Shown: positions 52,293 through 52,559 of the stretch, one piece after another
Layout of the letters: every line of letters begins with the position of its first letter
How positions within the stretch are numbered: the first letter of the stretch is position 1
The notes under the pieces: model-generated
Seen by the model: the letters and a program-made list of their open reading frames with translations, nothing else
Database searches by the model: none
What the model was told of the DNA's origin: nothing
Translations under genes and position numbers: made by a program
NCBI RefSeq assembly: GCF_003334785.1
Contig: NZ_QOWV01000002.1
Origin: Escherichia coli
GTDB taxonomy: Bacteria; Pseudomonadota; Gammaproteobacteria; Enterobacterales; Enterobacteriaceae
Length of the DNA: 64,000 nt
Direction: 5' to 3' (one strand)

Positions 52293-52559
52293 ATGGAATG
52301 GCTGGTCAAAAAATCGTGCTGCAATAAACAAGATAACAGACATGTACTTATGCTCTGCGATGCTGGCGGCGCGATAAAAATGATCGCCGAAGTGAAGAGT
52401 GACTTCGCCGTGAAAGTGGGGGATTTACTCTCGCCTTTGCAGAATGCGCTTTATTGTATTAATCGTGAAAAGCTGCATACGGTGAAAGTCCTCTCGGCAA
52501 GCAGTTATAGCCCCGATGAGTGGGAACGGCAGTGTAAAGTGGCAGGGAAAACTCAGTAA
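52293..52559 (+). CDS. pmrD: Signal-transduction connector protein PmrD (88 aa)
   Basis: Start at [15 protein letters not shown] within ORF 52263..52559. Confidence 0.88.

Follow-up and report, generated by a model that had tools for sequence, protein, structure and literature searches.

The convergent seven-nucleotide overlap of pmrD and arnF in Escherichia coli: geometry, conservation and overlapping transcription

In Escherichia coli, the 3' end of pmrD is interlocked with the 3' end of arnF on the opposite strand, which raises the questions of where the two transcripts end and whether ending there affects the regulatory pathway that the two genes share. PmrD is a connector protein between PhoP/PhoQ and PmrA/PmrB; PhoP activates pmrD, PmrD protects phosphorylated PmrA, and PmrA activates the arn (pbgP) operon (PMC3140997, PMC3335776). 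The locus was analyzed within a window of 64,000 nucleotides, the whole stretch of DNA considered here (contig NZ_QOWV01000002.1 of assembly GCF_003334785.1). Bases 52100-53000 were 100% identical to K-12 strain RP437, the window as a whole differed from that strain by seven substitutions and two indels, and the window is E. coli K-12-like. The seven single-base differences were scattered over the window, and an A run at 42385 differed in length by 1 bp from that of RP437.

Direct reading of both strands located the overlap at 52553-52559 (TCAGTAA, shared by the two strands). On the plus strand, pmrD (52293-52559, ATG at 52293, 88 aa) finished with the codons CAG TAA, and its stop occupied 52557-52559. 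On the minus strand, arnF (52553-52939, 128 aa), which encodes a flippase subunit and is the last gene of the arnBCADTEF operon, finished with TAC TGA, its stop being the reverse complement of 52553-52555. The RefSeq annotation contained the same overlap, and the coordinates and the description given for it in the preliminary description of this DNA were right. The identity of both products was clear from family profiles and structure. PmrD scored 175.4 bits against the NCBIfam equivalog NF011994 (cut-off 96) and was identical over its full length to the solved protein of PDB 2JSO (88 aa), and ArnF scored 140 bits against NF002816 (cut-off 99). The profiles covered residues 1-85 of the 88 in PmrD and residues 4-122 of the 128 in ArnF, and the overlapped codons lay outside both. 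If one of the coding sequences ended earlier than annotated, there would be no true overlap; we give this explanation practically no credence and discarded it, since both stops are fixed by the reading frames, the 88-residue PmrD matched 2JSO from end to end, and both proteins passed the equivalog cut-offs. The pmrD gene is wedged between menE and the arn operon so closely that its stop codon interlocks with that of arnF. The two genes are a genuine convergent overlapping pair, both protein-coding and on opposite strands, and for an overlap between two annotated genes chance is the wrong question.

A published census counted 75 convergent overlapping pairs among approximately 4,050 adjacent gene pairs of E. 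coli (PMC4161906). Within the window, eight pairs were convergent; arnF/pmrD was the single one that overlapped, and the other seven were separated by gaps of 32-272 nt. The arrangement belongs to a minority class, yet a well-populated one, and is not unusual.

The polymerases that reach the overlap on the minus strand travel along a unit of about 7.3 kb, formed by arnF and the genes from arnB to arnE (52939-59894). According to the open reading frames and the RefSeq annotation of RP437, these were arnB (58764-59894, with its start checked), arnC (57792-58760), arnA (55810-57792), arnD (54923-55813), arnT (53271-54923) and arnE (52939-53274), all on the minus strand. Upstream of arnB, a direct repeat resembling a PmrA box (CTTAAG-gttaa-GTTAAT) was read at 59993-60009 on the minus strand; this candidate PmrA box presumably belongs to the PmrA-activated promoter that drives arn transcription toward the overlap. 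As a separate observation, arnB carried a 9-bp in-frame deletion relative to RP437 at about 59474 on the minus strand (GACGCCATT[CGCGCCATT]GGC), by which three codons between GCCATT direct repeats were lost; it was common to 2 of 5413 complete E. coli genomes (JKHS016 and AST198). On the plus strand, the presumed PhoP-dependent promoter of pmrD was placed at 52225-52259 by alignment with the mapped PhoP box and -10 element of Salmonella pmrD (PMC3335776). By positional homology, the putative E. coli PhoP box CGTTGA-taaag-AGTTTA would correspond to 52225-52241 and the -10 element TAAATT to 52254-52259. The strict scan found no terminator-like site on the plus strand between the menE stop and pmrD (52184-52292), and polymerases arriving from the men operon could therefore also continue across pmrD and into antisense arnF. 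A promoter-like match on the minus strand at 52309-52282 was disregarded, as one match was found against 1.5 expected by chance.

Beyond the two stop codons, each polymerase enters the gene of the other. Two read-through stretches were analyzed by terminator scans, folding and composition: minus-strand 52184-52552, past the arnF stop and antisense to all of pmrD and its promoter, and plus-strand 52560-53011, past the pmrD stop and antisense to arnF and arnE. It had been noted earlier that there is no space for a terminator between the genes, and this was borne out: the coding ends interlock, and the scans of the junction were empty. The strict terminator consensus gave zero matches downstream of either stop, and a bidirectional intrinsic terminator (a stem-loop with an A run and a U run) was absent from the junction in the strict and the permissive scans. 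The permissive scan, which required a hairpin at least as stable as -6 kcal/mol and a U-rich run behind it, returned one weak match per strand within 250 nt, at 52381 on the minus strand (dG -10.4) and at 52741 on the plus strand (dG -10.9). The former was the weak candidate for a stop of arn read-through (52376-52407, minus strand) and combined a 6-bp hairpin (52407-52388) with a U5 run (52380-52376); its fold had a dG of -10.9 and a z score of -2.0. Were intrinsic terminators of this kind hidden inside the coding sequences, the transcripts would have clean ends and would share a short, inert overlap, and the two permissive matches and the local z score are consistent with such hidden stops. 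The details of the minus-strand candidate and its distribution argued against them. The U run began 7 nt past the 6-bp stem, was drawn into a loop in an alternative fold, and was the reverse complement of the invariant KMIAE codons of pmrD. In the alignment, the stem was confined to Escherichia and missing in Salmonella and Citrobacter.

The same permissive scan was applied to the seven other convergent pairs of the window as a control. A textbook bidirectional terminator of -16 kcal/mol was recovered at yfcD/yfcC and a good one of -14 kcal/mol at nuoN/yfbP; the remaining five pairs, though they have room for a terminator, gave weak matches only. Matches of -11 kcal/mol also appeared inside unrelated coding sequences, equal to or better than the candidates at arnF/pmrD, whereas the real terminators of the window reached -14 to -16 kcal/mol. 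The yfcD/yfcC terminator itself (AAGAGCCGCAATTGCGGCTCTT, 7198-7231, about -16 kcal/mol on both strands) served as the positive control of the scan. After folding, cross-species alignment and these controls, the permissive matches were dropped as terminators, and the candidates at arnF/pmrD are at noise level. For about 250 nt past each stop, neither the strict nor the permissive scan yielded a convincing intrinsic terminator, a lack that is not peculiar to this pair, as five of the seven other convergent pairs were alike in this respect. Hidden intrinsic terminators are very unlikely in our estimation, and even termination at the candidate sites would leave the transcripts with an overlap of about 170-180 nt. 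Another terminator-like hairpin, CTTCCCGGCTGGGAAG followed by GGACTTTTTC, was seen at 52645-52660 on the minus strand, inside arnF on its sense strand and about 90-105 nt before its stop; its stem occurred only in Escherichia and its fold had a z score of -1.15, and it is probably due to chance.

Folding of the whole stretches was unremarkable and revealed no defined element (z = -2.5 for the minus-strand read-through and -1.1 for the plus-strand read-through). An Rfam scan of 50000-55000 at E <= 1 returned no RNA family, and alignment and folding uncovered no conserved RNA feature beyond what the coding sequences require. The composition of the read-through RNAs was C-rich relative to G. In the minus-strand stretch antisense to pmrD, the C/G ratio was 1.3-1.9 over about 52491-52219, and in the plus-strand stretch, C exceeded G at 52583-52712 and 52869-53011, antisense to arnF and arnE, with ratios of up to 2.7; on both strands, the skew is of the kind that is generic for antisense strands. 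Because both untranslated antisense stretches contain more C than G and no intrinsic terminator was found, Rho-dependent termination inside the neighboring gene is the likely way in which the two transcripts end, as judged from composition. Published 3'-end maps had little bearing on this point. In the curated tables of Adams et al. 2021, which cover Term-seq ends and Rho effects, pmrD, arnF and menE had no entry, and among coordinates beginning with 23730-23735 no 3' end was present. These numbers came from the RP437 record and not from that of MG1655, and the cultures in LB or M63 were non-inducing; the tables are therefore uninformative for the locus and do not count as negative evidence. 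The SMRT-Cappable-seq supplement had no entry for the locus.

Whatever the exact positions of the ends, the overlap of the transcripts is obligatory because each polymerase must pass its own stop codon and the two stops are interlocked. The preliminary description had proposed that arn and pmrD transcription run into each other, with potential interference between them. The overlapping transcription was supported by the geometry, by the lack of terminators and by an RNA-seq entry in PMC12288877, a support that does not extend to the interference. In that study, which introduced ExcludonFinder (Sanmartin et al., NAR 2025, PMC12288877), arnF-pmrD was among the 165 convergent excludons of MG1655, each detected in at least 50% of 58 MG1655 RNA-seq data sets, and was named as a pair whose members act in one pathway. 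An excludon was defined there by overlapping transcript boundaries, set at 50% of gene coverage, and a pair with overlapping coding sequences qualifies almost automatically once both genes are expressed. Capture of double-stranded RNA with p19 recovered 40% of the E. coli excludons in the same study, a figure for the set and not for arnF-pmrD. Literature searches on transcript ends, terminators, antisense RNA and interference at pmrD turned up the ExcludonFinder paper as the sole relevant one. The arnF-pmrD overlap is already known from standard annotation and from this entry of 2025, and is real but ordinary; what is added here is comparative detail on a known overlap rather than a discovery. 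Two further pairs in the study deserve mention. The pair pmrR-basS, which lies outside the window and also belongs to the PmrA/PmrB pathway, is a convergent excludon in its Table 1, and yfcH-rpnB, with 3' ends at 3183-3231 of the window, is in its convergent excludon table too.

The explanation that we favor, and consider moderately probable, is a genuine tail-to-tail overlap in which Rho, for the most part, ends each transcription unit within the opposite gene and the two genes damp each other modestly. Each unit would end within its neighbor most likely through the action of Rho on C-over-G untranslated antisense RNA, and head-on collisions of polymerases might contribute when both promoters are active. 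The outcome would be an obligatory 3' antisense overlap, that is, a convergent excludon, with at most a modest damping of each gene by the other. In the direction of pmrD, induction of the arn promoter by PmrA would generate read-through antisense to pmrD and thereby lower pmrD expression. Such a regulatory effect of arn read-through is plausible; it would have the same sign as the repression that PmrA is known to exert on the pmrD promoter of Salmonella. If arn read-through does lower pmrD expression, a cis-acting feedback would be added to the textbook circuit, which might help to explain the variable output of pmrD between single cells (PMC13215669).

How firmly the junction is kept was analyzed within E. 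coli and among its relatives. The same 7-nt overlap was found in the RefSeq annotation of all five strains inspected (RP437, WCHEC040047, EC-107, WL297 and Nissle 1917). A 901-nt query around the locus was matched with at least 80% coverage in 5405 of 5426 complete E. coli genomes and a 66-nt query across the junction in 5238 of the 5426, with both genes annotated under the junction in every one among the matches listed. A PmrD sequence profile searched against one genome per species gave ten loci, and an eleventh came from looking up the Salmonella protein. The stop-to-stop distance was -7 in E. coli, Escherichia sp. MOD1 and E. albertii (TCAGTAA or TCAGTAG), -6 in S. enterica and its subsp. 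diarizonae, +23 in subsp. arizonae, and +3, +3, +3 and +9 in Citrobacter amalonaticus. In the Salmonella enterica loci (L014, 2753-2758, and L013), both stops lay inside the 6-nt palindrome TCATGA, which reads TGA on each strand. Three distant members of the PmrD family (P0079, P0081 and P0085) had different gene neighbors, arnF not among them, and a fourth (P0073) was alone on an 896-bp contig; these four were uninformative on the junction. In no pmrD-arnF lineage examined was there room for a terminator between the genes, and the exact geometry and the stop codons varied (-7 to +23 nt). The tight 3'-3' junction was kept wherever pmrD adjoins arnF among these loci, and the comparison indicates that the fit is old. 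The protein tails encoded by the overlapped codons differed between genera, and the exact 7-nt overlap would be explained most simply by drift of the stop codons in the unconserved tails of both proteins.

This variation bears on the main rival of the favored explanation, namely that the overlap is a neutral by-product of the insertion of pmrD beside arnF and of later stop-codon drift, with Rho trimming the read-through, expression being low, and no measurable regulation in either direction. Besides the changing distance, the differing stop codons and the position of the overlapped residues in unconserved tails, several observations are in keeping with such packing. Convergent overlaps are numerous in E. 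coli, as the census cited above shows. The pmrD gene is regarded as horizontally acquired (PMC3140997), and GC was lower in pmrD (46.8%) and in the menE-pmrD spacer (35.8%) than in menE (56%). Moreover, one Escherichia lineage has kept pmrD after the loss of nearly the entire arn operon. This strain, E. coli SCPM-O-B-8794 (3001-4303 of locus L006), had a deletion of arnBCADTE and most of arnF; its pmrD was retained with an altered C-terminus beside a 66-nt remnant of arnF, and ais, nudI and yfaZ followed directly. Against a neutral origin, the two stops have remained no more than about 25 nt apart in all three genera, with no lineage gaining a terminator, and the pair joins two steps of one pathway, as would be expected of a selected arrangement; neither point is decisive. 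We regard neutral packing as a real possibility that falls short of probable. Other changes at the locus were seen in E. coli as well. In strain O80:H26 EC-107 (1697-2470 of locus L003, corresponding to about 52290-52298 in the window), an IS1A had inserted at the start codon of pmrD with a 9-bp target duplication (ATGCAATGG); the pmrD coding sequence was intact but cut off by the element from its PhoP-dependent promoter. Besides the 88-aa form, the protein search returned many clusters of shortened E. coli PmrD, of about 49-70 aa and in some cases with dozens of members, and a Shigella fragment was among them; this suggests repeated decay of pmrD in some lineages.

The persistence of the tight junction in Escherichia, Salmonella and Citrobacter could also be read in the opposite way, as the mark of a selected antisense arm in which PmrA-activated arn read-through represses pmrD to a substantial degree, whether because polymerases collide, because RNase III cuts the RNA duplex, or both. 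This strong form seems unlikely to us. The read-through would then constitute a second negative loop in the PhoP-PmrD-PmrA circuit and, conversely, PhoP-driven transcription of pmrD would trim arnE and arnF, a reciprocal scheme that we find equally doubtful. The absence of any terminator protecting pmrD, the agreement in sign with the PmrA repression in Salmonella and the place of the pair in the published excludon list fit this idea. They are opposed by the lack of conservation of the weak hairpin and by the failure of the alignment, folding and Rfam searches described above to find a conserved RNA feature or family; in addition, the arn operon is 7.3 kb long and the flux of polymerases at its end may be low. 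The biology of the circuit in E. coli also bears on the favored explanation. In Salmonella, phosphorylated PmrA represses the pmrD promoter (Kato, Latifi & Groisman 2003, as cited in PMC3140997 and PMC3335776), and this PmrA-pmrD feedback loop is absent in E. coli (PMC3140997). In E. coli, PmrD is made in a PhoP-dependent manner and connects the two systems weakly or only under some conditions (PMC3140997, PMC3335776, PMC13215669). In low Mg2+, PmrA/PmrB of E. coli is not activated by PmrD (PMC3140997), and the argument from feedback may therefore count for little in E. coli. That the unterminated junction is a selected device, a second negative feedback arm at the level of transcription kept in Escherichia, Salmonella and Citrobacter since the acquisition of pmrD, is in our judgment improbable; if true, it could contribute to the weak connectivity of PmrD in E. 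coli and to variation from cell to cell in polymyxin tolerance and in the expression of pmrD.

Comparison with known systems placed the pair among ordinary arrangements. Like other tail-to-tail overlapping pairs of bacteria, arnF/pmrD has a short overlap made by movement of stop codons; structurally nothing sets it apart from them, and it stands out only in that both genes belong to one regulatory pathway. The closest precedent is the ExcludonFinder entry, in which overlapping transcription of these two convergent neighbors was already claimed for E. coli K-12. It gives neither the anatomy of the locus nor a functional test of the pair; the present analysis adds the exact 7-nt geometry, the conservation over three genera, the search for terminators with controls from the same window, and the argument from composition for Rho. 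The repression of the pmrD promoter by phosphorylated PmrA in Salmonella is a negative feedback of the same sign as the proposed effect of arn read-through, but it is exerted by a protein bound at the promoter and has been demonstrated experimentally, whereas the antisense route at arnF/pmrD is hypothetical. In the bidirectional terminators and programmed head-on RNAP collisions described by Wang et al. (bioRxiv 10.1101/2022.10.23.513370), the polymerases of convergent E. coli genes likewise meet at the gene boundary. That mechanism, however, depends on a stem-loop that lies between the genes and sets the site of the collision, and arnF/pmrD has neither intergenic space nor such a stem-loop; the true example of this type in the window is yfcD/yfcC, at about 7198-7231.
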